Source of the DNA: a phage
Assembly: GCA_025812035.1 (NCBI GenBank)
Contig: GCA_025812035.1_4719.1
Reading direction: 5' to 3' (one strand)
DNA length: 64,000 nt
The notes under the pieces are model-generated. The model worked only from the letters and a program-made list of their open reading frames with translations, searched no databases and was not told where the DNA came from. This document shows, one piece after another, positions 2,636 to 51,086 of this stretch. A program made the translations under genes and the position numbers. The first letter of the stretch is position 1, and every line of letters begins with the position of its first letter.

Positions 2636-3457
2636 ATGGATAAAGTATTTGTTTGTAAGCTGTTTACTAACGGCAATAGCCAACCGATGTATCTGACCGA
2701 TCCTGTTCTGGGTAATCGAAACAGCACCGTATTCAAAGAAGCTATCGATTACGCCAAAAACAAAGCCGTGAGAACACTGACGTCCGATGACTGTGTCAAT
2801 GGTATCACGTGGGCAGAGTTATTAGGTGATGCTGTTAGACACTTCGTTCGGGATGCAAGAAAACAGGAAATCAGCCTCACGACTATTGTTGTGCGTGAAA
2901 ACGCAGAAATTTTATCAAACGTTTTGGTTGATTTTAATGACGTTTACGTGTTTAATCCAGAGAACACTTTTGAGCAATACCTTGCCGCCCTGAACAAACA
3001 GCTTGATAAAGATGTTCATCCCGAATTCGCCAAGTTAACGTATCAAGTGCTTTTTGATGACGTTGATCCGAATACGAAGATCAGTACCAGCTTATCGTCC
3101 CTGGTAAAGAAATACGGATCGGTTATTGCTACGGCAACACCCACCACCGACGGTAGTTATGATATCGAATTGGATGGTCCGTTAAAAGAACAGGAACCTA
3201 CTGGAGTTCGGGCAATACAGCATAACCTCGTCGTTAAATCCGATGGTTGCGATGAGCATTACGCTATGACAAACGATGTAAACAATTACCGTTTAAGTCA
3301 AGCGATTGGTGTTCTGCGTTATACTGAACCAACCGTTGTAGACGATCATACATCGACAACGACGCATACAACGTGTTACATTTTCATTTACCCTAATGAA
3401 AGTGTGTATATTACTGACTGCTACGGCAACACCGTAGATAGCTTGCGTCGCTGTTAA
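2636..3457 (+). CDS. hypothetical protein (273 aa)
   Basis: Long ORF with TAA stop, followed by a canonical terminator. Confidence 0.6.
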   Translation: MDKVFVCKLFTNGNSQPMYLTDPVLGNRNSTVFKEAIDYAKNKAVRTLTSDDCVNGITWAELLGDAVRHFVRDARKQEISLTTIVVRENAEILSNVLVDFNDVYVFNPENTFEQYLAALNKQLDKDVHPEFAKLTYQVLFDDVDPNTKISTSLSSLVKKYGSVIATATPTTDGSYDIELDGPLKEQEPTGVRAIQHNLVVKSDGCDEHYAMTNDVNNYRLSQAIGVLRYTEPTVVDDHTSTTTHTTCYIFIYPNESVYITDCYGNTVDSLRRC

Positions 3458-3462
3458 ACATC

Positions 3463-3490
3463 AAGCCTGTCCTTCGGGGCAGGCTTTTAT
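3463..3490 (+). terminator. canonical rho-independent terminator (10-bp stem, UUCG tetraloop, U-tract)
   Basis: AAGCCTGTCC-TTCG-GGGCAGGCTT followed by TTTAT, 6 nt after the stop of 2636-3457. Confidence 0.7.
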
Positions 3491-3564
3491 GCTGTTATTA
3501 TTGGGAATAAGAATTAACAAAACAGGAAGATGGTGTGGATATAACACAAAGGAGGGAAATGATT

Positions 3565-3681
3565 ATGTTACTCATTCTAATGGAGAGAGCATTGCTGGCG
3601 GGTATATGCGCATTCTCTGTTAAACACGCTGTTACTATCATGACTGAAGAAAGGCGTAATACGCATAATGTATTACGCTGA
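3565..3681 (+). CDS. putative small hydrophobic peptide (38 aa)
   Basis: SD AAGGAGGG sits 8 nt upstream of the ATG. Translation is MLLILMERALLAGICAFSVKHAVTIMTEERRNTHNVLR. Too short for the ORF track. Confidence 0.3.
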   Translation: MLLILMERALLAGICAFSVKHAVTIMTEERRNTHNVLR

Positions 3682-3790
3682 AAACGCTGTCTGCATTAGT
3701 GTATGACGAGAAATCGTCGAGGCCCCCGTCTTCACGAGGGCCAACACCTATGCGCGATTATTTACCATTCACTAAACAAAGGTTATAAAC

Positions 3791-12525: not shown

Positions 12526-12942
12526 TTATTTTCCTCGATTTTCTAGTTGAGACACAATACCATCGGCAACGTAATGTAACTGGACATTCAGGTCCAGCGG
12601 CGATAATGCGGAAATTGACCAGCAGGCATTTGAGGTCCAATACAACCCACCTTCACCCAAAGAGACTTCCCACGTTAACTTCGTTATGACGTCTCTGGCT
12701 CGCTGCTCACTATATCGAAATGCATTTTCCAACAATGTTTTTCCCGTTTGTGAACATAAAAAGCACAGTTTCACATCTGTGTCCGTCTTTTCAAAATCAA
12801 ACAATCGAAAATGGTCGGTCAAAGAGGTGGTGGAGGCTAGGCATTGCAATGCGTCTTCCAACGCAAGATGGTCTAGCGTTTCTAAGTTCTTGCATGGCTG
12901 TTTTGGTGCAAGTGCGATTGATTTGCAGAATTTAACGTTCAT
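12526..12942 (-). CDS. small protein, paralog family S (member 3)
   Basis: See previous entry. Tightly packed with 1-nt spacing. Confidence 0.55.
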   Translation of the reverse strand: MNVKFCKSIALAPKQPCKNLETLDHLALEDALQCLASTTSLTDHFRLFDFEKTDTDVKLCFLCSQTGKTLLENAFRYSEQRARDVITKLTWEVSLGEGGLYWTSNACWSISALSPLDLNVQLHYVADGIVSQLENRGK

Positions 12943-12990
12943 GGTTATTTCCTCGTAGTGTTAAGTGGGGACACACCTGTCCCCGAATAA

Positions 12991-13461
12991 TTAGATTACA
13001 TCCCAAGCTGCGTTGGGTATGGGTTGGTTACGATCGATGTAATACATCATGCTTTCTTTAAGTTTGGTCAGCACATCAGCAACGATGTTCTCTACGGCAA
13101 TCACCTTTTCCATGTTGCTCATCGTATCTTGCCACGTGAACCATTCGATCACATTGACGATATGTAAGACCTCATTGTCGTCGGTCATGACCTGGGCATT
13201 TTCACGATGGTCTCGAGTTGTGTACAACGGTGTTTGTATATTCGTTTTAATACGCGTCCAAAGCTTCTCAAGAAAGTTCGTCGGTTGATTATTCGTCGCG
13301 ATGATAAGCTCACTGCGTACCAAATGTTCTCCTCGCTTCTCAATGGCAAGTAACCCATCGTAAGTGATGTTCATCAAGTTACGGAGGTCATCATTGCTAT
13401 TCCAGTCTTTTACGACAGCAGGAAGTTGGCTGTTGTAGCCTTCGGGTAATTTTTCAATCAT
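12991..13461 (-). CDS. hypothetical protein (156 aa)
   Basis: ORF in a co-directional array. Confidence 0.55.
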   Translation of the reverse strand: MIEKLPEGYNSQLPAVVKDWNSNDDLRNLMNITYDGLLAIEKRGEHLVRSELIIATNNQPTNFLEKLWTRIKTNIQTPLYTTRDHRENAQVMTDDNEVLHIVNVIEWFTWQDTMSNMEKVIAVENIVADVLTKLKESMMYYIDRNQPIPNAAWDVI

Positions 13462-13906
13462 CGGTTTCTGCTCCTATATCACGTTTAAGGTCGACCACCA
13501 GTTTTTCATAATGGTCTTTTATTACATTAGCAATAACGAATTGCACTTTTCTCACTAGCTGCTCATCGGCATCGTTGAACGTAAAATGCTCACGCACTTC
13601 AACCGGACGTGACGCGCCACCGATATCGTAAACTTTATTCGATGTACGACGAGCGATTACCGGTAGCGATTCCATGGTGTTCAGCGCAGTACAGATTTCC
13701 GTAACGAGTTCTTGAATACTGCTTCTGCCTTCGATGATAACAGAACAGCGATAGACATCCACTTCGTTAAGCTGTTCAACGACATCCGCCTTGATTTTGA
13801 AATTCCCAATAAGAGCGCTAACCAAAGTGCGATGCCAGTTGTTCACTACCCCAACCAGCAAGGGATGATTCTCAAGATCCCTTTTGTTCATCTCTAAGCC
13901 CCTCAA
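13454..13906 (-). CDS. hypothetical protein (150 aa)
   Basis: ORF overlapping the downstream gene by 8 nt. Confidence 0.55.
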   Translation of the reverse strand: MRGLEMNKRDLENHPLLVGVVNNWHRTLVSALIGNFKIKADVVEQLNEVDVYRCSVIIEGRSSIQELVTEICTALNTMESLPVIARRTSNKVYDIGGASRPVEVREHFTFNDADEQLVRKVQFVIANVIKDHYEKLVVDLKRDIGAETDD

Positions 13907-13929
13907 TCGTTCTATAACAAACTTTTATT

Positions 13930-13952
13930 GGAAGGGAATATGTTTCCCTTCC
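13930..13952. other. perfect 9-bp GC hairpin GGAAGGGAA/TTCCCTTCC (family-related)
   Basis: Sits between co-directional genes and has no adjacent U-tract. Confidence 0.4.
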
Positions 13953-13970
13953 TTGGGTTCGGTTATTGCG

Positions 13971-14246
13971 TTACGCAGCTTTACAGCTTGCGTAAACCAC
14001 AATCGTTCCGTTGTTGATTGCCTCAACAATTTCCTGGGTCAGTTTGGTCGCTAATTTATTATCCGTCCCCGGTACGTAATAACCTTCTCCTGTTTCAGTG
14101 ATTAAGCGATAACGTACTAATCCCACCGTACGCTCAACGCGTACCACCTTTTCAAGTTTGTGTTTGATGATCTTCGTCAGACTGATTGTATCTGACGTGT
14201 AGATCGCTTTATAAACTTTGTTCTTTGCTGTCGGTTTCATCAACAT
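13971..14246 (-). CDS. hypothetical protein (91 aa)
   Basis: ORF in the array. Confidence 0.5.
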   Translation of the reverse strand: MLMKPTAKNKVYKAIYTSDTISLTKIIKHKLEKVVRVERTVGLVRYRLITETGEGYYVPGTDNKLATKLTQEIVEAINNGTIVVYASCKAA

Positions 14247-15102
14247 GGTTTCTGTTTTCCTCGGTTTGTTGTGGTGCTAGGTCAGAGATATCCCATCGGA
14301 CATAACCGATCTCACTGATTCGCTCTGCTACCTCTTCGGTTTGCGAATTACGACTAATCATCGGTAACCATTCTCCGTGTCCGGTGATCTTGACTTCCGT
14401 AAGCTGTAAACTCATGTTCCAACGAACATCGTAAACCAACGCATAGCCAAGAGGATGAACAAGTCCATCTTGGGCGTACATCGTCAAAAGACCTCTTACA
14501 TCTTCGCTACGAAGTGATTTCATGGATGGGCGTACGCGTTGAAGTCTATTTGTGATATCGTATCCCAACTCGATGTCTTTCCAACCTGTCATGGCGTAAG
14601 GAATAACGTTACGACGACGGAGCTGATAGTTGTGAGTGGTTTCTTCGGCGGTAAGGTGTACCCAACCGAGATCGCTGTATGCGACAAACCGCACCGTATC
14701 ACCATCGATTGCAGTATGCCCATCTAACGCTGCTGCAACACCGTGGCCTGCGTAATACGGCGGAATAACGTTAATCATTTTAATACGACTTTCTTGACCG
14801 GTATGGTCAGGATCGATATGTGCGTAGAAACAATTATGGCTTACAGGGCGACCTTCCGCCATACGCCCACGGAAGACAGGGTCCTGCATTCCGAGCGGAT
14901 GGTAATACGCGAGCTGTTGCTCTTCACCTTCCCCGATTACCAACAAACGATCTTCACGACTTGGCGTACTAGGATCTTTCACTGTGATGTAACTAACAAC
15001 CGGTTTCAGGTTGTTTAAAATGTCCTCTGTAAGTTTCTCTAAATCCGATGCTGCGTAAATACGGTTAACAACGGTGTTTACAAGGTGTTTTGATAAGCTC
15101 AT
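14209..15102 (-). CDS. paralog family H protein A (unknown function)
   Basis: Shares YHPLGMQD, a second HPLGY motif and C-terminal GYVRWDISDL with 15184-16074. Confidence 0.65.
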   Translation of the reverse strand: MSLSKHLVNTVVNRIYAASDLEKLTEDILNNLKPVVSYITVKDPSTPSREDRLLVIGEGEEQQLAYYHPLGMQDPVFRGRMAEGRPVSHNCFYAHIDPDHTGQESRIKMINVIPPYYAGHGVAAALDGHTAIDGDTVRFVAYSDLGWVHLTAEETTHNYQLRRRNVIPYAMTGWKDIELGYDITNRLQRVRPSMKSLRSEDVRGLLTMYAQDGLVHPLGYALVYDVRWNMSLQLTEVKITGHGEWLPMISRNSQTEEVAERISEIGYVRWDISDLAPQQTEENRNHVDETDSKEQSL

Positions 15103-15183
15103 TTTAGATCTCTCTTTGTTAATGGTAAATAAATAACGGCATAAAAAGGGGACAACGCTGTCCCCGTGTTAGGTATTATCTGC

Positions 15184-16074
15184 TTACGGCTTCAAATCCG
15201 AAATATCCCAGCGTACGTAACCTGTGTGTTCGATATCCTCGACCAATTGCTCGGTTTGATTTTCAACACCGACAACGGGAACCCAATTCAACTGTTGGCT
15301 ACGTATACCGATGTTAACCTCGACACGCTGCAGATCATCATTCCAACGAACCCCGGCCGGTTTCACAAAACCCAGCGGATGGATAAAACTAAGATCGTCG
15401 CTGAAATCACGAAGAACGCGCAATGTATCGATGGATGAAGGGTTATCATAGCGAACAGGACGTACGCTTTGCAGTTTATCGTATACCGCTCGAGCTGCGC
15501 GCTCGTCACGCCAGGTCGTCATGTATACCGGTTTTATACCACGTTTTAGAAGATGATCGATCTGGATCGCGATGTTATCGTGAACATACATGCAGCCCTG
15601 TTCGGTTTCGGTGTTGTAACCACCATCTTCTAACCGGTTCGGATACGTCAGATGGTCTACCGTCACAGCAACTCCTTCAGCGAACGTGTTCAACGGAAGA
15701 AAACGTTGCAGACTCGTTATCGGATAATCGGGCGACATCCCAGGACGGATATGCGCCATCGTCCCCCAACTGTCAGGGAAGCCATGTCGGTATATGTATT
15801 GCCGGAATACCTCATCCTGCATCCCTAACGGATACCATCGTGCAAGCCGCTGTTGCTCACCATCCTGAATAACAAAAAGCATTTCTTTGCGATTCGGCCA
15901 TCGATGATGTTCCACGGTCAAGCCATCAACAACCGGTCTTAAATTGTTCTTGATGTGTTCTGGAAGTTTATCCACCTCTTCACGACGATAAAAACGATCG
16001 ATGACGATGATGTCAACCTTCCCATGATTGAACCAGTTCATGTTAACTCCCTCTGTGGTGCGAAAACAAAACAT
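15184..16074 (-). CDS. paralog family H protein B (unknown function)
   Basis: See A. An alternative ATG at 16041 has SD GAGGGA. Confidence 0.65.
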   Translation of the reverse strand: MFCFRTTEGVNMNWFNHGKVDIIVIDRFYRREEVDKLPEHIKNNLRPVVDGLTVEHHRWPNRKEMLFVIQDGEQQRLARWYPLGMQDEVFRQYIYRHGFPDSWGTMAHIRPGMSPDYPITSLQRFLPLNTFAEGVAVTVDHLTYPNRLEDGGYNTETEQGCMYVHDNIAIQIDHLLKRGIKPVYMTTWRDERAARAVYDKLQSVRPVRYDNPSSIDTLRVLRDFSDDLSFIHPLGFVKPAGVRWNDDLQRVEVNIGIRSQQLNWVPVVGVENQTEQLVEDIEHTGYVRWDISDLKP

Positions 16075-16333
16075 CTAATTGCTCCCGTTGTTCTTTTAAG
16101 TATGCGGGAAGCTGGTCTTCCCGTACCGTTCCGATTTCTAACATGATGTACCAGCGTTGTTCGGAAGCCTGCCATTGAAAACTGCTCTGTAAACGTAGGA
16201 TGCTAGGATCATGTACCTTGCTTGCGCTGTAACGGTTGAACCAGCCCAGGTAAGCGGCTTTCCCCTCCTCATCGGCAACGTAACGCTGCACGCTGTTCTT
16301 CCCTTTGTTTTCGTATCCTGTTGCATGTATCAT
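16043..16333 (-). CDS. hypothetical small protein (~96 aa)
   Basis: ATG at 16333 overlaps the upstream stop as ATGA. ORF track gives 16043-16390. Confidence 0.5.
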   Translation of the reverse strand: MIHATGYENKGKNSVQRYVADEEGKAAYLGWFNRYSASKVHDPSILRLQSSFQWQASEQRWYIMLEIGTVREDQLPAYLKEQREQLDVLFSHHRGS

Positions 16334-17106
16334 GCGAACGTTTCTCCTGTAACGTGTTGTGGGCGTTGCAGCATGGTAGCATCCCAGCATACCAGCTTGC
16401 TTTTCTCAAGCATCTTCCGCGCCGTATCAACGCTAACGCCAGGATGCATGACAGGTAGCCAACGTTCGTTAAGCACCTTGGCTTCCAGGCGTTGCTTGCG
16501 CTTATTGTATTGTACCTCGCTAACCCATGCGTAACCGAAAGGATGGATAACCCGTGGGTAGTAACGTTTAAGCATCATCAGTCTTTGCTGATAAAGCTTA
16601 TCGGAACCCTCACCAACGAATAAGGCAACCCGTTCCAACCGCTTGGTGTAATACGTTCCGGTGGTATGATTGATCCAACCAGGAAGCGTTCGTACATCAT
16701 TTTCGAGTGTTCCTGATACGTTATGCACTTCACCGCTATACACCGTCCCAACAACCTGATTCGTTGCGTCCACCATCGACCGTGGCAAAGCATCCGCGGT
16801 AGGATACAACCATGCATCCCCAAGCTGCTCTCCCGACGCAAGTACCCGTAATCCGCTTGCGCTCACCCGCAACGGATGCTGGCTCTTATGCGCACGCAAC
16901 TGCACCACAGATAAGTCTACCGGATGGGCGATGCAACAGCCACGCTGACGGAACAGTCCAACCTCACCATCCACCCCTTCGATCATGCTTCCTTCCGAAC
17001 CGTTCCACCAACGTTTAACCTTCACGCATTCGGCTTGCACCGTTTCAGGCAACGTTAAATAATCGTGTTCAATAAACACCACATCAAAAATCAATGCTTC
17101 TTTCAT
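16330..17106 (-). CDS. paralog family H protein C (unknown function)
   Basis: Single HPFGY motif and related C-terminus. SD AGAGGA upstream. Confidence 0.65.
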   Translation of the reverse strand: MKEALIFDVVFIEHDYLTLPETVQAECVKVKRWWNGSEGSMIEGVDGEVGLFRQRGCCIAHPVDLSVVQLRAHKSQHPLRVSASGLRVLASGEQLGDAWLYPTADALPRSMVDATNQVVGTVYSGEVHNVSGTLENDVRTLPGWINHTTGTYYTKRLERVALFVGEGSDKLYQQRLMMLKRYYPRVIHPFGYAWVSEVQYNKRKQRLEAKVLNERWLPVMHPGVSVDTARKMLEKSKLVCWDATMLQRPQHVTGETFA

Positions 17107-17191
17107 CTAAAAAGATCCTCTGTTTTTTCACGTTAATTAAACAACGTATTGATTTCTATTCGATAGCAATACGAACATCGTACGTACGCAT

Positions 17192-17215
17192 CACTTAGGT
17201 AATATAGCCGTGAAA
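17192..17215. promoter_or_regulatory. conserved 24-nt motif (copy 2; CACTTAGGTAATATAGCCGTGAAA)
   Basis: One mismatch to the consensus. About 90 nt from the start of 16330-17106. Confidence 0.45.
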
Positions 17216-17858
17216 GGATTTGTGTTACAGAAAGGGTTTTGTTGTGTTTTAAGAAGGGATGGATAGTGATGTTATCTGAAAGGAGGATTTCAAGAAAGGT
17301 CTTGATTGAAGTAGGTGGAGTAAGTGAAGAGGTGAATAAACGAGAAGGGTTAGTTTGGTTGATGTAAGATGTTATCTTGTTATTGTTTTCATGTTTATCT
17401 TAGGTTATGTCTTAATTGTTCATATTCCTGATTGTTTAAGTTGTCTTATTTATCTTGTTTATATAAATAAAATTAAATTATAAAGTCAATCAACATGCTT
17501 ATAAGTTGGATAACTCAAAAAAACCATTTGTGATACTCTTCTTCACGTTGTTCATCAGAGTATCTCGTCTATACTCATTGCATTCGTATACGACATAACC
17601 GTTATACGCTAACGCTACGCTTATAGCTTGATAACTCTAAGGATAAAAACATAAACTCGCTTCGCTCGTTTAGTTTTTCTTTTTCTTAGAGTTATCTTGT
17701 TGCTCGTCTCTAAAGGACTTCGCTCCTCCCCCGTCCCCCGAAGGGGCCGAGGTCGTGGAAATTTTACTTTCCAAATACATTTACAACATCTGTAAACTTT
17801 TACTCCAGGTACTTAATCTTATCATTAGAAATTATCAAAGAGAATAATGACAGCATAA
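17216..17858. other. large noncoding region: candidate replication origin or noncoding RNA locus
   Basis: No ORF. C-depleted purine-rich stretch, AT-rich block (17455-17490), and five or more TTATCTT-type repeats. Confidence 0.35.
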
Positions 17859-17890
17859 CCTTCCTCCAACCCAACAGGGAAGGAGGAAGG
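17859..17890. terminator. conserved two-tier GC hairpin (family copy 4)
   Basis: CCTTCCTCC-AACCCAACAGGGAA-GGAGGAAGG, 3' of the 17906-18799 gene. Confidence 0.5.
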
Positions 17891-17905
17891 GAGAGATTAA
17901 TTCAA

Positions 17906-18799
17906 TTAATCGACAGTGTTATAACCGAATACAGCTTTACCGTAAGTGTGAGTACCGTCGGTTAACGACACCACTAGTACGTGGTTGTATGCGTCGTTAA
18001 CACCCTTGTCAGTAGACCCTGTGGTAGCTCCGTTATAGACAAAGGTAGCTGTTTGCAGGTTGGCTTTCAGCTCGTTAGTGATATCATCGCTGACACCCGT
18101 CTGCTCTTTGATCAGCGTAGTCAGGTTACCTGCCAGGCTTTCACCGATCTTGGTTTCGTTACTGGTGATCGCCTGTAAACCTGTAGTGTAGGAGCTGAAG
18201 TCTAACGGATAGGTTAACAGACGCGCTGAGGTCTTGGTACCATCACCTTCATCAACGTAGGTTAAGTTACCCAGGTTGGTAACCTTGATGATGTTAGACA
18301 GATCCAGCGTTGTGTTATAAACTTTAACTTGAACAGAGCCGTACCACGCCAATGAATCTTCTTTGGCTTCCAGGGTGATCGTCTGGATACCCGATTGCTC
18401 AAAGGTAACCGGCGTAGCTAACGTTTCGGCTTTGATGTCTTTTGCTTTATCCAGGAACTTATCACCAGATGGCGTGATCATACCGTAGCGTTTCGCTACA
18501 AGGTCAACCACATCACCGATGGTGGTGTTCGCATCAACGTTAACACGCACCGCGATCTTCTGGAACCACTTAGCCAGATCCAGACGATGGTAGGTAACAT
18601 CGCGGTTATTGAAGTAAGGAGTACCTTCACCAGGACTGAGTGTTAAAGTTGCTTCTGGAGCAGAAGCGCTTTTAGATTTAAGGACGTATTTAAGGTCGGT
18701 ATATTTAAAGCTGGCACCAGTGTCGGCGTTAAGCTGGTTGATCTCATCAACGATAAGCTGCCATGGTGTTTTTAAAGTAAGCGATACTTGAGCTGTCAT
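17906..18799 (-). CDS. probable abundant virion protein (unknown function)
   Basis: Optimised codon usage and a monocistronic layout. ORF track start at 18832 is TTG; the ATG at 18799 has SD GAGGAAG. Confidence 0.6.
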   Translation of the reverse strand: MTAQVSLTLKTPWQLIVDEINQLNADTGASFKYTDLKYVLKSKSASAPEATLTLSPGEGTPYFNNRDVTYHRLDLAKWFQKIAVRVNVDANTTIGDVVDLVAKRYGMITPSGDKFLDKAKDIKAETLATPVTFEQSGIQTITLEAKEDSLAWYGSVQVKVYNTTLDLSNIIKVTNLGNLTYVDEGDGTKTSARLLTYPLDFSSYTTGLQAITSNETKIGESLAGNLTTLIKEQTGVSDDITNELKANLQTATFVYNGATTGSTDKGVNDAYNHVLVVSLTDGTHTYGKAVFGYNTVD

Positions 18800-18854
18800 T
18801 TTCTTCCTCGATAGTTTGTACATCACTCTCAAAAGATGTAAGTGTTTACAGAAA

Positions 18855-18942: not shown

Positions 18943-19485
18943 ATGGCCTTAGACTTTAACAAAGCAGCGAAATCCCTTCTGCTCGATCTCATCAACACCA
19001 AAGCAACCCGCGCACTGTCCGAAGAAGAACTGCAGTTCGGTACTCCGACAGCATCTTCCGAACATGAAAAGAACACCGTTATCCAGCTGAATGCTGCGCC
19101 TGAAGCAGCTAACCTGCAGGGTACCTAGCAGTTCTTCTACAATCGTCTGGCTCTGTCCGAAGTTTTCGCTGACGTAACCGGTGATGTTACTTTCGAACTG
19201 CCGCACGGTACTGACAGCATTCAGGCTTCTGAGCTGGTAAGCAAGCTGGTCACCAAATTCGGTCTGGCTTCCCTGACCGGTGAAATCAATGAAGAAACCT
19301 TCCAGCTGTCTGCGGGTACTGTTGGTCAGGTAACCCTGACTGCGATCGAGGGTGGTATGGTATATACCGGCACTCTGCAGGTTGCACTGACTTATGCAGC
19401 AGCACCAAAAGACGAACTGGCAACCGTTCTGGCGAATAACGTAGCTGAAGGTTTCGAGAAACCGACCGTTAGCGTTGTTGGCTAA
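18943..19485 (+). CDS. highly codon-optimised 181-codon gene interrupted by in-frame amber codon (TAG at 19126-19128)
   Basis: SD GAGGA, ATG at 18943, frame open to the double stop TAATAA at 19483-19488 except for one TAG. No ATG in the 119 codons after the TAG. Confidence 0.6.
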
Positions 19486-19682
19486 TAAGCGCATAGAGCA
19501 ATAGTATGGGTTTTGTACAGCTCGGCTATTGCTCTTCTACAATTTGGTTGTAACAATCTGCGTGGTTGCACGCTTATCTTTTTCATTGAGCGCTTCGTAT
19601 GAAGCGTAGTGTTGAAAGGGTTGTGGATCTCCTCAAGCGGCCAGGGACCCAGACCAACCTAAATAAACACAAACAAATCTTA

Positions 19683-22604: not shown

Positions 22605-25208
22605 TTATAACGTGACTGTACCTAATTTGGTTGTCTTATTGAGATTAATGACAGAGATCTGGGTATCGCTGGTCGTAATCGTTCCGATATTAACGCGCTG
22701 TCCTTTATCATCCTCTTGCTTGTGGATGGTTAACTCCAGCTCTAACTGGTTACCGTTAGGAACAACGGAAACGTACCATGTTTTATTACCCGGGGAGCTA
22801 TTATAGTCTTTTAGGTTATAATGGCCTTTAGGTAGGGTCATGACTTTACCAGCAAACAGGCAGGTGATATCTTCGTTGATGTAGATATCGTAGCCGGAAG
22901 CGGCAACGACCGTAGAAACCATATAACGATTTTTAACAGCGATGGCTGTATATTCCGCAACGGAATTACCGACAGCGTTAAAGACCTGACCGCCATTACC
23001 CATCACCGTAGAGACGGCGGTATCAACATAACCGATTCCCCACACCGGATGTACGTTCCAGCGATAGCCGCTTGTCTGTAGATAAGCATACATGCCTTCG
23101 AATGCGATGGTTGTCCAGTTCCCATCGTTCTGTCGCCCAGCTCGGAACTGATAAGTGTTCTGGTTCCCTGCGGACTGACGAGAATACGGAACATGTCCCG
23201 CAACAAGCCATCCATCACTCACCTTCTTGTAAGCTAATACACCCCAGGCAGCATCCTGACTACCGATATTTGTTGAATCGGGTTCTTCGACATAACCCAG
23301 CAATTTGGTTACGCCCGTCACCGTAATAGCACCTTTACGTGCGGATACGGTAACCTCTGCAGCGATTCGTCCATGTACGCGTGTGCTGGTATTACAACCA
23401 GCAACAAACAGGATACAGGGCGCGTTTGTACCATCTGGAGGCACTGCTAACGCATGTCGCCACTGACTTACCCCCGATAACTTAGATCCTGTATATGCGT
23501 TCCACACAAGCTGACCGCCCGCCTGCAGATTCGCTGCGGTTATGCTGATGGCTTCACCGGATGGTGCAAGTTTGGTTGCATCGTAACCGATTTTGCTTGT
23601 TAGGACCGCATCGGTTAAATAAGACCCGCTAACCACCGTATTGTCATCGCTTAAATGCACGGTTAGGAAAGGTAACGACATTTGACCCGTTCTAACCACC
23701 ACGTTGTTGGAAGGCGGAAAACCGTAAACATTAATACCCTCGCCCTGATAATGGTAATTGAGGTTCCAGTCATAGGTCACTAGACGAGCCTCAAAATTAC
23801 CCTGTCCGCCAGCCGTACGCGAGTTAACAAAAACCTTGTTTTTAGAAAAGAAACCCAGGTAACCATGGGACGCGAGTGCACCAACGACGCGATCCCCGAC
23901 GCTTTTCCAGTTTGAATCGTACTGTCTTCCACCGGTCGGGCCGAGTTTGGCGAGTTCGTCGAACACGTTTCCAGAGAAACCTTTGATGGTGTACGATCTC
24001 GCTTGGGGGGCGGATAAGTTATCGTTTTGGATAAGAGCTACCTGACCACGTTCGTTGATTTCGATATTCCCGGTACCGTTACCCGAACCCCATTGCCAGA
24101 AACCATCGTTATATGCACTTGTCCCCTCCGTTGTGTTAGAAGGTCCTATCCAGTCAATACCGCTGCTGGTTGACGTGTAAGTCGATTGTCCAGCGCCTGG
24201 GTTCATGCTGTAACTGTTGTTGGCGGTTTCAAAATCCAGATAAAACTGATGCAGCCCATTTTTATTCTTGTTATTGCGGTTGTTCGTCCACCATGCCGAA
24301 GCAATCAGAATGCGTGCTTTAGTGCCTTTGGTTGCTGCGAGCAGACGAATCTGAGCACGCCAGACGGTTTGACCGATCCCGTCAGAAGGGAAATCGTTCG
24401 CAGTTATGCGGTTGCAGACAATCATCTCGGCGCTGTTGCTTATTGCCGTTCCTTCTATCGTTCTACCGCTGATGTTCGTAAGTTGCGTAGCCGCCACACT
24501 ACCACCGTTAGGTCCGATGGAAGATTTGGTTACGGTATAAACGTTGATGTAAAGTTTATAGCCGTTGCCGTTCGCAATAGCAATATAGATTTTACCGTTG
24601 ATTTCCCAGCAACAGACATTAGGTGAGGTGTCTATGAAGCTGGCGAGACTACCATCGAGGTACGCTGCTATATGCTTGCTTGAATCAAACGTCCCGTCGG
24701 TCAATGCAATAAACATTTTAGGGCTGCTACCGTCTTCAAAAGCAGCTTGACCTAACATGATACCGTTCTGGTGGCAGTATATCACAGTAGGAATACGATC
24801 GAGCGTCGCGGGCTCATAACGACGACTGGTTGGGATAACTTCGGTGATTTGCCCGTTTTGATCTGTTTTACAGATAACGTAGTAAACCCCTTTCTTTACG
24901 CTGTTCGTTGCTGAACGCAATAACACGATGGTACCGTCCGATTCACGACATACGCCGTAACGACGGTATTTGTCGTTTAGGGAGATAGCACCATCAGCGG
25001 AGCCTTCAATTGCCAGAGGAAAATAACTTTGGTCCCCAACCTGTTCGATATCGGTTACGCTGATATCGATGTATTTTTCCATCTCGGTGTTGAACTCAGC
25101 GGTACTGTAGGCCCCAAGATCACTCGCTTTTAGTCCCGTTGGGTTGTCGCGACTGGCGATACGCGTATTAACGCTACTCACCAGTTCGCTGAACTTTTTC
25201 ATTGCCAT
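22605..25208 (-). CDS. putative tail fibre / receptor-binding protein (867 aa)
   Basis: N-terminal SELVSSVNTRIASRDNP motif shared with the neighbouring small fibre genes. Lies within the fibre cluster. Confidence 0.5.
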   Translation of the reverse strand: MAMKKFSELVSSVNTRIASRDNPTGLKASDLGAYSTAEFNTEMEKYIDISVTDIEQVGDQSYFPLAIEGSADGAISLNDKYRRYGVCRESDGTIVLLRSATNSVKKGVYYVICKTDQNGQITEVIPTSRRYEPATLDRIPTVIYCHQNGIMLGQAAFEDGSSPKMFIALTDGTFDSSKHIAAYLDGSLASFIDTSPNVCCWEINGKIYIAIANGNGYKLYINVYTVTKSSIGPNGGSVAATQLTNISGRTIEGTAISNSAEMIVCNRITANDFPSDGIGQTVWRAQIRLLAATKGTKARILIASAWWTNNRNNKNKNGLHQFYLDFETANNSYSMNPGAGQSTYTSTSSGIDWIGPSNTTEGTSAYNDGFWQWGSGNGTGNIEINERGQVALIQNDNLSAPQARSYTIKGFSGNVFDELAKLGPTGGRQYDSNWKSVGDRVVGALASHGYLGFFSKNKVFVNSRTAGGQGNFEARLVTYDWNLNYHYQGEGINVYGFPPSNNVVVRTGQMSLPFLTVHLSDDNTVVSGSYLTDAVLTSKIGYDATKLAPSGEAISITAANLQAGGQLVWNAYTGSKLSGVSQWRHALAVPPDGTNAPCILFVAGCNTSTRVHGRIAAEVTVSARKGAITVTGVTKLLGYVEEPDSTNIGSQDAAWGVLAYKKVSDGWLVAGHVPYSRQSAGNQNTYQFRAGRQNDGNWTTIAFEGMYAYLQTSGYRWNVHPVWGIGYVDTAVSTVMGNGGQVFNAVGNSVAEYTAIAVKNRYMVSTVVAASGYDIYINEDITCLFAGKVMTLPKGHYNLKDYNSSPGNKTWYVSVVPNGNQLELELTIHKQEDDKGQRVNIGTITTSDTQISVINLNKTTKLGTVTL

Positions 25209-28536: not shown

Positions 28537-29817
28537 ATGTATACATTGGTAAAAACTTACGGATTACCCGTAGGTTCTGGTACGGCCTGGACAGCACTTG
28601 AGGCGGGTGAAAGTGTCCTGAGTACGTTGTTCTCAACGTATCAAAAACTCAAGATCCAGGTTCATGAAAGTTATGCTGATCAGCAACAAGTTATTGATCT
28701 GTACGCGTTCCAATCCGAGCTTCAAAACAGCAGCGATACGCTTAATGCGTGGCTGAAGGCGAAATCGGACGCACATACTAACCTCCGTGGACAGCCAGGC
28801 GAGCTGTCGATTAAAACACACAAGCTTTATTGCCACGACGTTATTACGGTAGGCTTTCTCCCTAAAGTTGGTAACAGTGGCTATCATCCAAGCAACCCGA
28901 TCCCTGAGTCGGAGCGCACGGATATATTGCTAACAAAAGCGAATACGAACTACGAAAATATCGGCAAGCATTGTTTGTTTACCGTGGGTGGTTATGTTCA
29001 TCCTCACGTTTACGGTAAAGACGTCGGTGTCTATATCCAAGGCGGGTTCAAAACAGCACAACGCAGCCAAGAAAATGATATTGGCATGATTGATTTTAGC
29101 CGTATCGGGAGTTTGGAAATCCATGCCATCACAGAAGAGATGATTGCTGATTCCACGAAGCTCTTGCCGTATAAGGACGAGATGTACTTACGACTACCAC
29201 GCAAGGTAGCTGAAGGTGAGACCGTCGCGTTAGTGTTCGGAGGGTATTTACATCTTCTTGACGATTGTTATACCATCGTTAGTGACACAACAGCGAAAAT
29301 AAACTTCGTTAACATGTTTCTGTACGAAAGATACTTCCGCTCTCGCAAATACCTTGATTTAACATCCCTTGGTATTTTGCTGGATGAAGAAAACCCGCAG
29401 TCCGACATCGTTGCTAACCGCTTATTGTCTGATAAAGTATTGAAAGCGTGGGTTACACACCCTTGCAGTTTCTGGGTGTATATCAAAGCAACATCAATCC
29501 AGGTCACGCAAGAACCTTTACCACGTAGCGGCGTACCAGGACAATATTTCTTAGGTAAGAAACCGGAAGGGCTGATTCGAGCCGATCTTGGCGAGTTACC
29601 GGCTTATGTGCAGACCTATGAAAAACCGTTATGGGTACTTCACTCACGCTGGGGACTTCGTAAGAACATGTTGTTTGAAAACACGCTGTACAAGCATACG
29701 CGTGTTAAGCGACTTAACGATACGCCTTATCTTCATCAGGTTTGGTTGGAAACGCATGCGACGTTGCAGACAGTGCACAAGCTCGAATTGATCGATTCCA
29801 GCCAGAAAAACAAATAA
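28537..29817 (+). CDS. hypothetical protein (426 aa)
   Basis: SD AAGGGGG and TAA stop, followed by a family hairpin. Confidence 0.6.
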   Translation: MYTLVKTYGLPVGSGTAWTALEAGESVLSTLFSTYQKLKIQVHESYADQQQVIDLYAFQSELQNSSDTLNAWLKAKSDAHTNLRGQPGELSIKTHKLYCHDVITVGFLPKVGNSGYHPSNPIPESERTDILLTKANTNYENIGKHCLFTVGGYVHPHVYGKDVGVYIQGGFKTAQRSQENDIGMIDFSRIGSLEIHAITEEMIADSTKLLPYKDEMYLRLPRKVAEGETVALVFGGYLHLLDDCYTIVSDTTAKINFVNMFLYERYFRSRKYLDLTSLGILLDEENPQSDIVANRLLSDKVLKAWVTHPCSFWVYIKATSIQVTQEPLPRSGVPGQYFLGKKPEGLIRADLGELPAYVQTYEKPLWVLHSRWGLRKNMLFENTLYKHTRVKRLNDTPYLHQVWLETHATLQTVHKLELIDSSQKNK

Positions 29818-29827
29818 ACGAACATAA

Positions 29828-47757: not shown

Positions 47758-47906
47758 TGAAAGTATCCTTTACAGAATTAACTTATATAAGTCGGTCGAT
47801 AGACCATAGCGTACACGCGTGCATGCGCCACTATAGTATCAGTAAACACTTACCGTTGTTTAGGCTGTGATACAACACTAAAAATGCCGCATAACTTTTT
47901 CCTACG

Positions 47907-48527
47907 TCACAAACGACGCAGGCGATAATGGATGGAACGATTGGTGCAATATGAACGGAACAGCGGCAATTGCGCAACTTCCGCAAGACTCATATTAATT
48001 CGCAGGTGTTCAATAACGGCGCTGTAGTTATCAGCAATACGATCGCTCAATAACTCTTCTGCCAATAAAGGAAGACAATCGACAACAATCGCGATCATAT
48101 CCTCATTAACATAACGCACCCGAACACTCAACGGACGTTTGTCTGGGCTGTAAGTTGGATCCGCCAAACGACGTTCAATATCACGCGGATAGCTCGTCAG
48201 TAAATGGTAGTAACCATTATCATAACGATTGATGTACTCACACAGCACATCAACATTCTTTTCTGGCGGCAAACCTGTTTCGTCATAGTGATACGCAAAC
48301 ATACCACCAAGCAGGTTGTTAAGATGAACTGCAGGGTTCGCTTGTTCGTGTTCTTTCGTGATGAAGAAAGGCACGTTCTGAGCTGCGAAATAAAAACCTA
48401 CATCATTGGGCGATAGTATGCCGAAAAGACTTTTAGGATCCAACAGCACCTGTAAGTCATCACGCGCATTTCGAATGATTGCGTGTTCTACCCAATTCGG
48501 AACGACGAGATATCGGAGTTCCTTCAT
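47907..48527 (-). CDS. hypothetical protein (206 aa)
   Basis: ORF with SD AGAGG. Confidence 0.55.
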   Translation of the reverse strand: MKELRYLVVPNWVEHAIIRNARDDLQVLLDPKSLFGILSPNDVGFYFAAQNVPFFITKEHEQANPAVHLNNLLGGMFAYHYDETGLPPEKNVDVLCEYINRYDNGYYHLLTSYPRDIERRLADPTYSPDKRPLSVRVRYVNEDMIAIVVDCLPLLAEELLSDRIADNYSAVIEHLRINMSLAEVAQLPLFRSYCTNRSIHYRLRRL

Positions 48528-50576: not shown

Positions 50577-50582
50577 GATAAC

Positions 50583-51086
50583 TTAAAACATGCGGTCGTT
50601 TTTAGCACGGGCGTCCATTACGAGATCGTAGATACCTGCGGTTCGTAAACATTCTTCGTAATAACGATGTGTGCCTTCCTCAGCCATCCACGATAATCCT
50701 CGGTTATCCGCAACAATAACCAGTTTGTTATTGTTGAACGCGCACACCACACGGTAGGTCGCGTTGTTATTCGGATCGCGAGTGATAAGCTCGTAGACGC
50801 CATTGACAGGTTTACTGAATTCACCGTTTAACGGGACAAGTTCAGTAGTACCTTCAGCGAACGTCGCGTTGATTGGTGATGGATCTTTAGCGATAACTGT
50901 ATATTCCACGTTATGTTCTTTACTGGTCATAATGCCGAAGTAAGAACTAATAGGGGAACGTGGTACACTAAGAATATTAAACATGAATGTTGTCCTCTTA
51001 TTTGGATTTAGATTGTTGGGTTTGTCATTGAGAAATGAATTAGACGATGAGCGCCCAGGTAGTAAGCACACCGCTTGCGAATTCAA
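50583..51086 (-). CDS. hypothetical protein (167 aa)
   Basis: ORF. Confidence 0.5.
   Translation of the reverse strand: MNSQAVCLLPGRSSSNSFLNDKPNNLNPNKRTTFMFNILSVPRSPISSYFGIMTSKEHNVEYTVIAKDPSPINATFAEGTTELVPLNGEFSKPVNGVYELITRDPNNNATYRVVCAFNNNKLVIVADNRGLSWMAEEGTHRYYEECLRTAGIYDLVMDARAKNDRMF

Follow-up and report, generated by a model that had tools for sequence, protein, structure and literature searches.

The stretch of DNA analysed here is a 64,000-nt phage sequence (contig GCA_025812035.1_4719.1 of the NCBI GenBank assembly GCA_025812035.1), hereafter referred to as the window, which was found in a phage database search to be approximately 90% identical to Escherichia phage vB_EcoM_Goslar, its sole match. 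Goslar, a nucleus-forming jumbo phage with a 237-kb genome belonging to the Chimalliviridae, represents the E. coli model of this family. The largest gap between coding sequences (CDSs) in the window, 799 nt in length, is flanked by two minus-strand CDSs located at 16330-17106 and 17906-18832, respectively, and features only open reading frames (ORFs) of 30 to 42 amino acids (aa). An earlier reading of the window, made from its letters alone (the sequence-only reading), had described this place as the largest ORF-free stretch, as is confirmed here, and as a candidate origin or noncoding RNA. A matching unannotated gap exists in the Goslar genome (NC_048170) at 14,972-15,825. The CDS at 16330-17106 encodes a homolog of Goslar gp021 (258 aa, 44% aa identity, function not assigned) and opens a hypervariable block of early genes. 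The CDS at 17906-18832 was assigned by homology to Goslar gp022, a DUF7941 protein reported to be among the most abundant virion proteins (bioRxiv 10.64898/2026.04.21.720040). In Goslar-like phages, a lineage-specific noncoding module of approximately 0.6 kb lies between these genes, embedded in an otherwise ordinary terminator/early-promoter cassette. Its ultraconserved, hairpin-rich core block (17524-17835, minus strand) is proposed, based on comparative sequence data and folding, to represent a structured noncoding RNA (ncRNA) gene including its promoter.

Comparison was based on 21 related loci, which were collected from IMG/VR, metagenomes, Logan assemblies, and isolate assemblies of NCBI. 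Close relatives were mostly recorded in isolate assemblies of Salmonella, Shigella, and E. coli as well as in metagenomes, which is in line with a report on 'persistent virulent phages', in which 59 out of 60 Goslar-like genomes originated from bacterial assemblies. On aligning the relatives, the 799-nt region splits into three parts, namely, a conserved part (17107-17262), an indel-rich part (17263-17505), and a nearly invariant part (17524-17835), the last one representing the core block. This block is 98-100% identical in 11 relatives featuring a gp022 CDS identity of 81-92%, and is still 92-96% identical in a divergent clade, as compared to 77-81% for the gp022 CDS; copies of the divergent clade evolve approximately three to five times more slowly than the adjacent CDS. 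Moreover, the core block accounts for the two longest perfect-match runs of the 14.8-kb locus L013, and just one longer run was found outside of it in the 5.5-kb locus L005. It is present as a single copy both in Goslar and in the window.

The invariant block ends at an A-run (17517-17523; a U-run in the minus sense), which varies in length between five and nine among the relatives, is conserved on both sides, and is proposed to mark the 3' end of the RNA. In most relatives, a further hairpin module of 85-110 nt, as conserved as the core block, follows beyond this run. It was located between the A-run and an AT-rich block in L032, L005, L036-L039, L042, and L052-L057, and is missing from the window (site at approximately 17505), L013, and L041. 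The additional module features a perfect hairpin (ACATGTGTT...AACACATGT), an GCATTACAC motif, and CGTTA repeats, and is accompanied in some genomes by another hairpin (AACGTTTTG...CAAAACGTT).

Strong conservation could, in principle, also be observed for a segment that has no function of its own and was recently spread or homogenised by recombination, or for a small protein gene. Variant segments are indeed mosaic, since L055 and L052 join the 5' type of one clade with the hairpin types of another, and the window shares long perfect-match runs with Goslar at other places as well, e.g., 320 nt at 23521-23840. However, sharp boundaries and near-identity are common to about 20 independent genomes from several hosts, the copies of the divergent clade change three to five times more slowly than the neighbouring CDS, and the changes that do occur preserve the structure described below. 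Regarding a protein, an ATG-initiated ORF of 36 aa is located at 17670-17780 on the minus strand; however, it covers only one third of the block, lacks a Shine-Dalgarno sequence, and shows two synonymous and two nonsynonymous changes in the alignment. Small ORFs in 17239-17483 are broken by indels in relatives, and aligning the relatives revealed no conserved ORF that would combine a ribosome-binding site with substitutions of the coding type. These explanations are therefore considered very unlikely.

The core block has a pronounced folding potential, amounting to -77.6 kcal/mol (z -5.3) for the minus sense vs. -62.8 kcal/mol (z -4.1) for the plus sense, and in each of the 20 sequence variants, the minus strand folds more stably than the plus strand, the difference being 13-19 kcal/mol. 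The consensus structure predicted from the 20-variant alignment comprises 13 helices with 90 pairs, and 99.7% of the alignment cells are able to pair, as compared to 37-54% if the partners are slid against each other. Two pairs at the apex of the hairpin at 17567-17594 exhibit compensatory changes (A-U/G-C/G-U and U-A/C-G); in total, 13 double-change cells were counted vs. 4.7±1.5 in shuffled alignments, none of the 500 shuffles being as high. Four one-sided changes (columns 44-51, 60-72, 103-124, and 104-123) maintain pairing by means of G·U in the minus sense only, and correspond to A·C mismatches in the plus sense. Hence, as is looked for in structured ncRNAs, the structure is backed by compensatory substitutions, with two double-change and four G·U-preserving pairs.

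Among the hairpins of the minus strand is a small GC hairpin (CCCCCGAAGGGG, 17735-17746), which forms a cUUCGg tetraloop in the minus sense and is embedded in an outer helix. The sequence-only reading had recognised this hairpin, although it had been placed at 17728-17745. In the outer helix, C-G/U-G is swapped to U-G/C-G (columns 103-104/123-124), pairing again being kept in the minus sense only. A long invariant hairpin of 67 nt is located at 17630-17696 (inverted repeat, predicted helices 8-9); its base stem of 12 bp carries an upper stem with a GCGAAGC cap. A further hairpin (17567-17594; GUCGUAUAC-GA-AU[GCA]AU-GA-GUAUAGAC) has the only variable apex, a G-N-A triloop reading GCA, GUA, or GAA among the relatives. 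A long-range pairing model for 17570-17625, derived from the first alignments, was rejected, because it is broken by the divergent clade, which supports the local hairpin. The 3'-terminal hairpin (17532-17564, predicted helix 13), invariant in the 20 variants, consists of an 8-bp stem (GAUACUCU/AGAGUAUC) and an invariant 17-nt loop, and is located 8 nt upstream of the U-run.

Fold stability and the changes tolerated only as G·U indicate that the functional form of the core block is a single strand of the minus sense, i.e., the sense of gp022. Such a strand fits an RNA, single-stranded DNA (ssDNA) of the same strand being the alternative. Furthermore, loops and linkers are as invariant as stems, suggesting that the putative RNA is read by a specific partner, either a protein or another nucleic acid, and does more than simply fold.

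Signals typical of a transcription unit were also recognised. The palindrome GTAAAAGTTTAC at 17792-17803, invariant in the 20 variants, was classified as a promoter-type element based on its recurrence and is proposed to be the middle or late promoter of the ncRNA on the minus strand. Its recurrence came to light through a complementarity search, in which no antisense target of at least 13 nt stood out in the phage sequence. The exact 12-mer occurs four times in Goslar vs. approximately 0.03 expected occurrences. The wider GTAAR-NN-YTTAC family is represented by nine Goslar sites (15.7, 16.8, 26.5, 45.8, 81.2, 173.1, 176.8, 189.0, and 202.8 kb), and 15 out of the 18 strand-hits are intergenic in a genome with an intergenic share of 8.6%; in the window, family members are located at 17792-17803, 18838-18849, 28549-28560, and 47842-47853. 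Sites in Goslar lie between gp022 and gp023, gp029 and gp030, and chmA and gp245; others precede the major head protein gene, gp069, gp213, and a DNA polymerase gene. Of these neighbours, gp022/gp023, the major head protein gene, chmA, and the DNA polymerase gene count as highly expressed. The palindrome resembles the phiKZ middle-promoter motif AAanTTACc (PMC4666361). For PHIKZ054, the chmA homolog of phiKZ, an early and a middle promoter have been reported (PMC8244752), with which the motif pair upstream of Goslar chmA agrees. The GTAAR-NN-YTTAC family is regarded as a candidate motif for middle/late promoters or for operators in Goslar-like phages.

A terminator of the gp022 homolog is located directly upstream of the module with respect to the minus strand (17854-17890). 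It consists of an inverted repeat forming a hairpin at 17859-17890, followed by TATGCTGT with TATG at 17857-17854; this usual tail is found only on the minus-sense side of the hairpin. Units composed of a GC hairpin and TATGCTGT occur approximately six times in the window and nine to ten times in Goslar; they follow genes, convergent pairs included. Those of the window, written as GC hairpin plus (T)TATGCTGT, are located at 3488 and 29862 on the plus strand and at 17857, 45401, 53562, and 58868 on the minus strand. Since TATG matches the consensus core of late promoters in phiKZ, these units may represent coupled terminator/re-initiation signals. As the promoter of the RNA, TATG after the terminator proved to be an ambiguous candidate, given that the unit also follows convergent genes and reads TATA in four out of eight divergent relatives.

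At the opposite end of the block, an 8-bp hairpin, an 8-nt spacer, and a U-run of five to nine among the relatives follow each other. Palindrome, structured stretch, and 3' hairpin with U-run may together be read as a small gene, the exact ends of which we infer. The only detectable distant homolog, L049, whose gp022 is 54% identical, shows a similar arrangement. Its syntenic element starts with the palindrome in the form GTAAGAGTTTAC, continues with a matching hairpin-in-hairpin featuring flipped base pairs, and reaches a canonical GC terminator in the gp022 sense approximately 200 nt further on.

Taken together, the core block most likely, with a probability of roughly 55%, represents a minus-strand gene, new and specific to this clade, for a stable and highly structured ncRNA of about 250-330 nt, which is followed by an unstructured, repeat-bearing spacer. 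According to this proposal, the core would be transcribed in the gp022 sense by the non-virion RNA polymerase of the phage, starting from the GTAAAAGTTTAC element (17792-17803) and/or from TATG after the gp022 terminator; in the former case, the RNA perhaps begins approximately 20-35 nt downstream of the palindrome, near 17767. The transcript would fold into a chain of hairpins, comprising the cUUCGg hairpin, two hairpins capped by 'GA-NN-GNA-NN-GA', and the long 67-nt hairpin, and would end at the terminal hairpin and U-run (17517-17523). The spacer may provide a platform for strand-specific binding or a site at the DNA level.

Several points weigh against this interpretation. Transcription, strand, and RNA ends of the core block are all deduced from sequence, and the publicly available RNA-seq data of Goslar infection (Armbruster et al., PMC10541120; time points of 5-60 min) have been published at gene level only. 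The covariation is thin, as it comprises two pairs and most of the others are invariant and hence uninformative; moreover, the structure was predicted on the same sequences that were used to test it, and hairpins in ssDNA of the same strand tolerating G·T would yield an identical signal. RNA structure by itself does not usually require a sequence to stay almost 100% identical over 310 nt. Being symmetric, the palindrome could act on either strand, or could be an operator instead of a promoter. TATG after the gp022 terminator reads TATA in four out of the eight relatives of the divergent clade, and the unit may be a mere terminator tail, because it follows convergent genes as well. In the terminator scan, no canonical intrinsic terminator was detected at the hairpin and U-run with its 8-nt spacer, and the U-run may not be the RNA end, since conservation continues past it in most relatives. 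Finally, the covariance-model match to L049 is marginal, with 19 bits and an E-value of approximately 0.03 according to a rough calibration.

The core block appears to be unrelated to known RNAs and to the host. No match was obtained for the whole window against Rfam release 15 at gathering thresholds, and only two chance-level matches (E 5-6) were returned for 17000-18000 in E-value mode; likewise, a search for tRNAs and tmRNAs found none in the window. Searches of E. coli genomes in near and distant similarity modes yielded no match to the block, indicating that it is neither a host mimic nor a captured host sequence. A 25-mer scan of the GTDB species-representative genomes was also without a match, and a scan with a degenerate pattern returned only chance-level matches in unrelated metagenome-assembled genomes (5 vs. 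approximately 9 expected). The closest parallels among phage RNAs are the ncRNAs derived from 5' untranslated regions (UTRs) of phiKZ and the ncRNA1/2 of PAK_P3, which were defined by expression, are 90-210 nt long, and are mostly UTR-derived (PMC10914365). Similar to the element described here, they are intergenic, conserved in sequence within the genus, and discrete units bounded by promoter- and terminator-like signals, and no function has been assigned to them. In contrast, the present element is known solely from comparative sequence analysis and is predicted to be longer (approximately 250-330 nt, and about 450 nt for most of the relatives); its conservation far exceeds that of its flanks, and it shows neither a sequence nor an Rfam relation to those RNAs.

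The spacer preceding the core block on the plus strand is of a different nature. The sequence-only reading had noticed that the first approximately 250 nt are almost devoid of C, which holds true, since 17216-17465 contains 14 C in 250 nt (5.6%, as compared to 23.5% window-wide) and comprises the C-poorest 150-nt and 250-nt windows of all 64 kb. Asymmetry is most evident at 17216-17360, where the plus strand is C-poor and purine-rich (5 C in 145 nt) and the minus strand G-poor and rich in C, U, and A (C=50, G=5). TTATCT(T) copies are arranged in one direction on the plus strand (17272-17277, 17372-17378, 17395-17401, and 17450-17456), with a fifth copy at 17692-17698 inside the core block. Exact TTATCTT was found at 17372, 17395, 17450, and 17692, i.e., four times within 327 nt vs. 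15 copies on the two strands of the remaining 64-kb sequence, so that the clustered (G)TTATCTT copies noted earlier were retrieved, except that the copy placed at 17268 actually reads TTATCTG (17272-17278). The repeat count in 17263-17505 was reached by none of 20,000 composition-preserving shuffles. In Goslar, the equivalent five copies per 107 nt mark the only place in the whole genome with at least three copies per 300 nt. Units are 7-11 nt long (extended consensus GTTATCTTGTT) and irregularly spaced by 9-61 nt (9, 33, 29, and 35 nt for the Goslar copies, as compared to 23 and 55 nt for those of the window). A conserved island, AGGTTATGTCTTA, is located at 17402-17414, and the proposed AT-rich block at 17455-17490 was verified by base count (33 out of 36 positions, 92% A+T) and is kept at the same place in most relatives.

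Among the relatives, 17263-17505 is approximately 70-80% identical where alignable, and the length of the spacer ranges from 228 to more than 420 nt. All 21 relatives feature two to six TTATCT copies in one orientation and almost none in the opposite one, and their minus strands contain 6-15 G per 150 nt despite indels. Read in the minus sense, the spacer of 298 nt has hardly any structure (-20 kcal/mol, z -0.3). Its features are thus conserved in kind and tied to the strand, which points to a function; it may constitute an RNA tail with AAGAUAA motifs, an array of binding sites in DNA, or an origin.

The last option corresponds to a replication origin, in which the TTATCT repeats would bind a phage initiator, the AT-rich block would melt, and the hairpin block would provide single-strand initiation (ssi) or priming signals or an RNA primer; such an origin would be compatible with an RNA if it were RNA-primed. 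Its layout was compared with that of the oriV of IncQ plasmids or the RNA-primed ColE1 and T4 oriF origins. Several features agree with this view. The repeat cluster is locked in orientation, unique in the 237-kb genome, and kept in 21 out of 21 relatives despite turnover; it is adjoined by the AT-rich element typical of origins; and the order of repeats, AT block, and hairpin block is that of IncQ-type origins. The strong strand asymmetry suggests a process specific for a single strand, the location coincides with the largest noncoding stretch at the boundary of early and late genes, and no origin is known for any chimallivirus. In addition, the minus strand carries the mini-hairpins GCGAAGC and GCGTTAGC, which a review ties to phage priming sites (PMC13037366). 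However, these motifs were given little weight, because their genome-wide frequency corresponds to chance.

Further evidence speaks against an origin at this place. An inflection of the cumulative GC skew, which the sequence-only reading had named as a check, was not observed, since, over the complete Goslar genome, this skew reaches its minimum at 215 kb and shows no extremum at 15 kb. The skew at third codon positions of Goslar minus-strand genes does switch sign near 15 kb. However, structural genes favour C over G at third positions of the coding strand whatever their strand (GC3 skew of -0.15 to -0.29), and the same bias was found for the plus-strand gp023 and the tail sheath gene at 197 kb; hence, the apparent switch at the early/late boundary is a gene-class effect due to the codon bias of structural genes and does not follow position. 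This bias spans 15-32 kb in Goslar (approximately 17.9-34 kb in the window) as well as other structural genes. Iterons are present as three or more direct repeats serving as initiator binding sites, and are usually 17-22 bp long and helically phased; here, three to six TTATCT(T) copies of one direction were counted, but the units are 7-11 nt long and irregularly spaced by 9-61 nt. The likeness to DnaA boxes proposed earlier is limited to the common TTATC core, as no DnaA box (TTATCCACA) with up to one mismatch was found in 17107-17905. No adjacent initiator gene could be recognised; the gp021 homolog was considered as such, but it matched no Pfam or PHROG family, and its AlphaFold model (predicted local distance difference test score of 47) was unusable. 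Moreover, the element is absent from the syntenic site of L047, and a block with a promoter-type palindrome looks like a transcription unit.

Beyond the order of its parts, the module resembles the IncQ (RSF1010) oriV in its GNA-type loops, as found in ssiA and the G4 priming site, and in its strand specificity; it differs in its short and irregular repeats, in its hairpins being confined to one strand instead of forming two opposed ssi sites, and in the absence of both a recognisable cognate initiator/primase gene nearby and skew support. With ColE1 RNA II and T4 oriF, it shares a (predicted) promoter, a (predicted) multi-hairpin RNA, and an AT-rich region, a phage RNase H being encoded by Goslar gp190; however, its minus-sense tail is G-poor and has no G-rich segment for a persistent hybrid. 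Given that skew, DnaA boxes, and an initiator lend no support, the origin reading rests on layout and is regarded as a doubtful, although not implausible, alternative, and as the main one. Accordingly, of the earlier designation 'origin or noncoding RNA', the RNA half appears to apply to 17524-17835, a part to which the sequence-only reading had drawn no special attention, as judged from conservation, strand-specific covarying structure, palindrome, and hairpin with U-run, and the origin half amounts to a resemblance of patterns.

The borders of the module are formed by the two halves of a cassette that has been split, as the sequence-only reading had supposed. The left motif (17190-17215) is repeated at 2510 and 53506, whereas copies of the right hairpin are present at 29823, 50206, and 53573; at 53.5 kb, both halves are adjacent. 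The left half was predicted to be a phiKZ-type early promoter, i.e., one used by the virion RNA polymerase (17197-17262, minus strand), comprising the core CACGGCTATATTACCT at 17197-17212, therein TATATTAC at 17199-17206, and a conserved upstream part. On the minus strand, 17190-17216 reads CCTTTCACGGCTATATTACCTAAGTG and is located 90 nt upstream of the ATG at 17106. The early-promoter consensus of phiKZ-like phages is TATATTAC, and that of 201phi2-1 is TTTRARR_BTATATTACDWHDGTG (PMC7058600); the left half matches the phiKZ-type consensus and has a gene of the same strand downstream. The exact core 16-mer is present three times in the window, each time on the minus strand and upstream of a minus-strand gene, and an 18-mer of the promoter, AACACAAATCCTTTCACG, was found again at 142.8 kb in Goslar. 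Consequently, the leftmost approximately 45 nt of the noncoding region (17216-17262) are the upstream part of this promoter and belong neither to an origin nor to an RNA. The stretch between promoter and ATG (17107-17196, minus strand) constitutes the 5' leader in the early transcript of the gp021 homolog and is conserved, with approximately 81-99% identity across the relatives. In L013, an insertion of 43 nt (approximately 3150-3200, corresponding to about 17185 of the window) was observed beside the early promoter; it contains an inverted repeat (CATCATGAA...TTCATGATG) and duplicates the neighbouring CATCATGAAGGTAA.

Regarding promoters, the module thus agrees with phiKZ in the exact early TATATTAC at its left border, in GTAAAAGTTTAC being near the middle motif, and in TATG after the gp022 terminator; in contrast, a palindromic 12-mer and a bidirectional placement have not been described for phiKZ. 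In the usual order, the early promoter follows directly after the terminator, whereas approximately 0.6 kb is set between them here. The locus L047, whose gp022 is 51% identical, has an unsplit cassette at the syntenic site, from which it follows that the module is specific to the Goslar-like clade.

Since a late terminator lies on one side of it and an early promoter on the other, the module might alternatively be a transcriptional insulator or regulatory spacer, keeping the very strong late transcription of gp022 apart from the early-gene block. Stacked hairpins, the U-run, and a tract resembling Rho-utilisation (rut) sites would then stop read-through, repeats and palindrome being operators for a phage regulator that acts on the adjacent promoters. 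The abundance of the gp022 protein in virions and the location of the palindrome family in promoter regions are consistent with this idea. Rut sites are C-rich, G-poor, and unstructured, and the minus sense of 17216-17360 has this composition and is likewise unstructured. However, other terminator/early-promoter junctions manage without such a module (53.5 kb in the window; L047), and 310 invariant nucleotides including loops are not needed for insulation. Host Rho is also an unlikely partner, because phage transcription takes place within a vesicle or the phage nucleus, i.e., in compartments that host factors, according to reviews, are presumed not to enter. An insulator is therefore considered quite unlikely.

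A DNA-packaging (pac) site or another site acting at the DNA level, e.g., for the terminase or for transfer into the phage nucleus, was also taken into account. Short direct repeats around AT-rich, bendable DNA are typical of such sites. Furthermore, four out of seven large contigs (180-248 kb) carrying the locus, namely, L054, L055, L058, and L059, end within 3.7-8.7 kb of the locus, some on one side and some on the other, and the start of the Goslar record is 15 kb away; these ends could reflect a nearby pac region or physical terminus, or could be due to breaks of the assembly within the hypervariable block. However, they coincide neither with each other nor with the element, the large-terminase gene is far off (190 kb), and strand-specific G·U-type and compensatory changes are not expected of a site in double-stranded DNA, making this explanation highly improbable.

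A combined role was also envisaged, in which the module is a control region for replication and maintenance of Goslar-like phages, i.e., an origin formed by repeats and AT-rich melting site that is coupled to the structured RNA, the latter either priming or licensing initiation or being an essential cofactor in the life cycle of the phage nucleus. This is rather unlikely; if true, the plasmid-like way in which these 'virulent' phages persist in bacterial isolates, as reported for the 59 out of 60 genomes mentioned above, could have its basis in such a control region. Nucleus-forming jumbo phages represent a major model for the phage nucleus, mRNA export, and protein import. In the literature, neither a known replication origin nor a functionally characterised ncRNA was found for them, and no paper addressing either was found for Goslar or the chimalliviruses. 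The locus comprises the most constrained noncoding sequence near the early/late boundary of Goslar, next to the only repeat array of this kind in the genome, and hence offers a precise target for asking whether these phages need a structured RNA or initiate replication here. As a by-product, a candidate middle/late promoter or operator palindrome was obtained for Goslar-like phages.

Additional observations concern the surroundings of the module. The region at approximately 12537-17106 harbours hypervariable small early genes, large parts of which are unalignable to Goslar, and its flanks are approximately 90% identical at the DNA level. Other ORF-poor gaps of the window, 330-460 nt in length, were found at 47758-48203, 50577-51039, and 3458-3790. 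On the other side of gp022, a homolog of Goslar gp023, which is a DUF7941 protein and the most abundant of these virion proteins, is encoded on the plus strand (approximately 18943-19494) and contains an in-frame stop after about 61 codons in the window genome. This stop could be a nonsense mutation, indicate a pseudogene, or represent a sequencing error; a 181-aa ORF located opposite the gp023 homolog is spurious.

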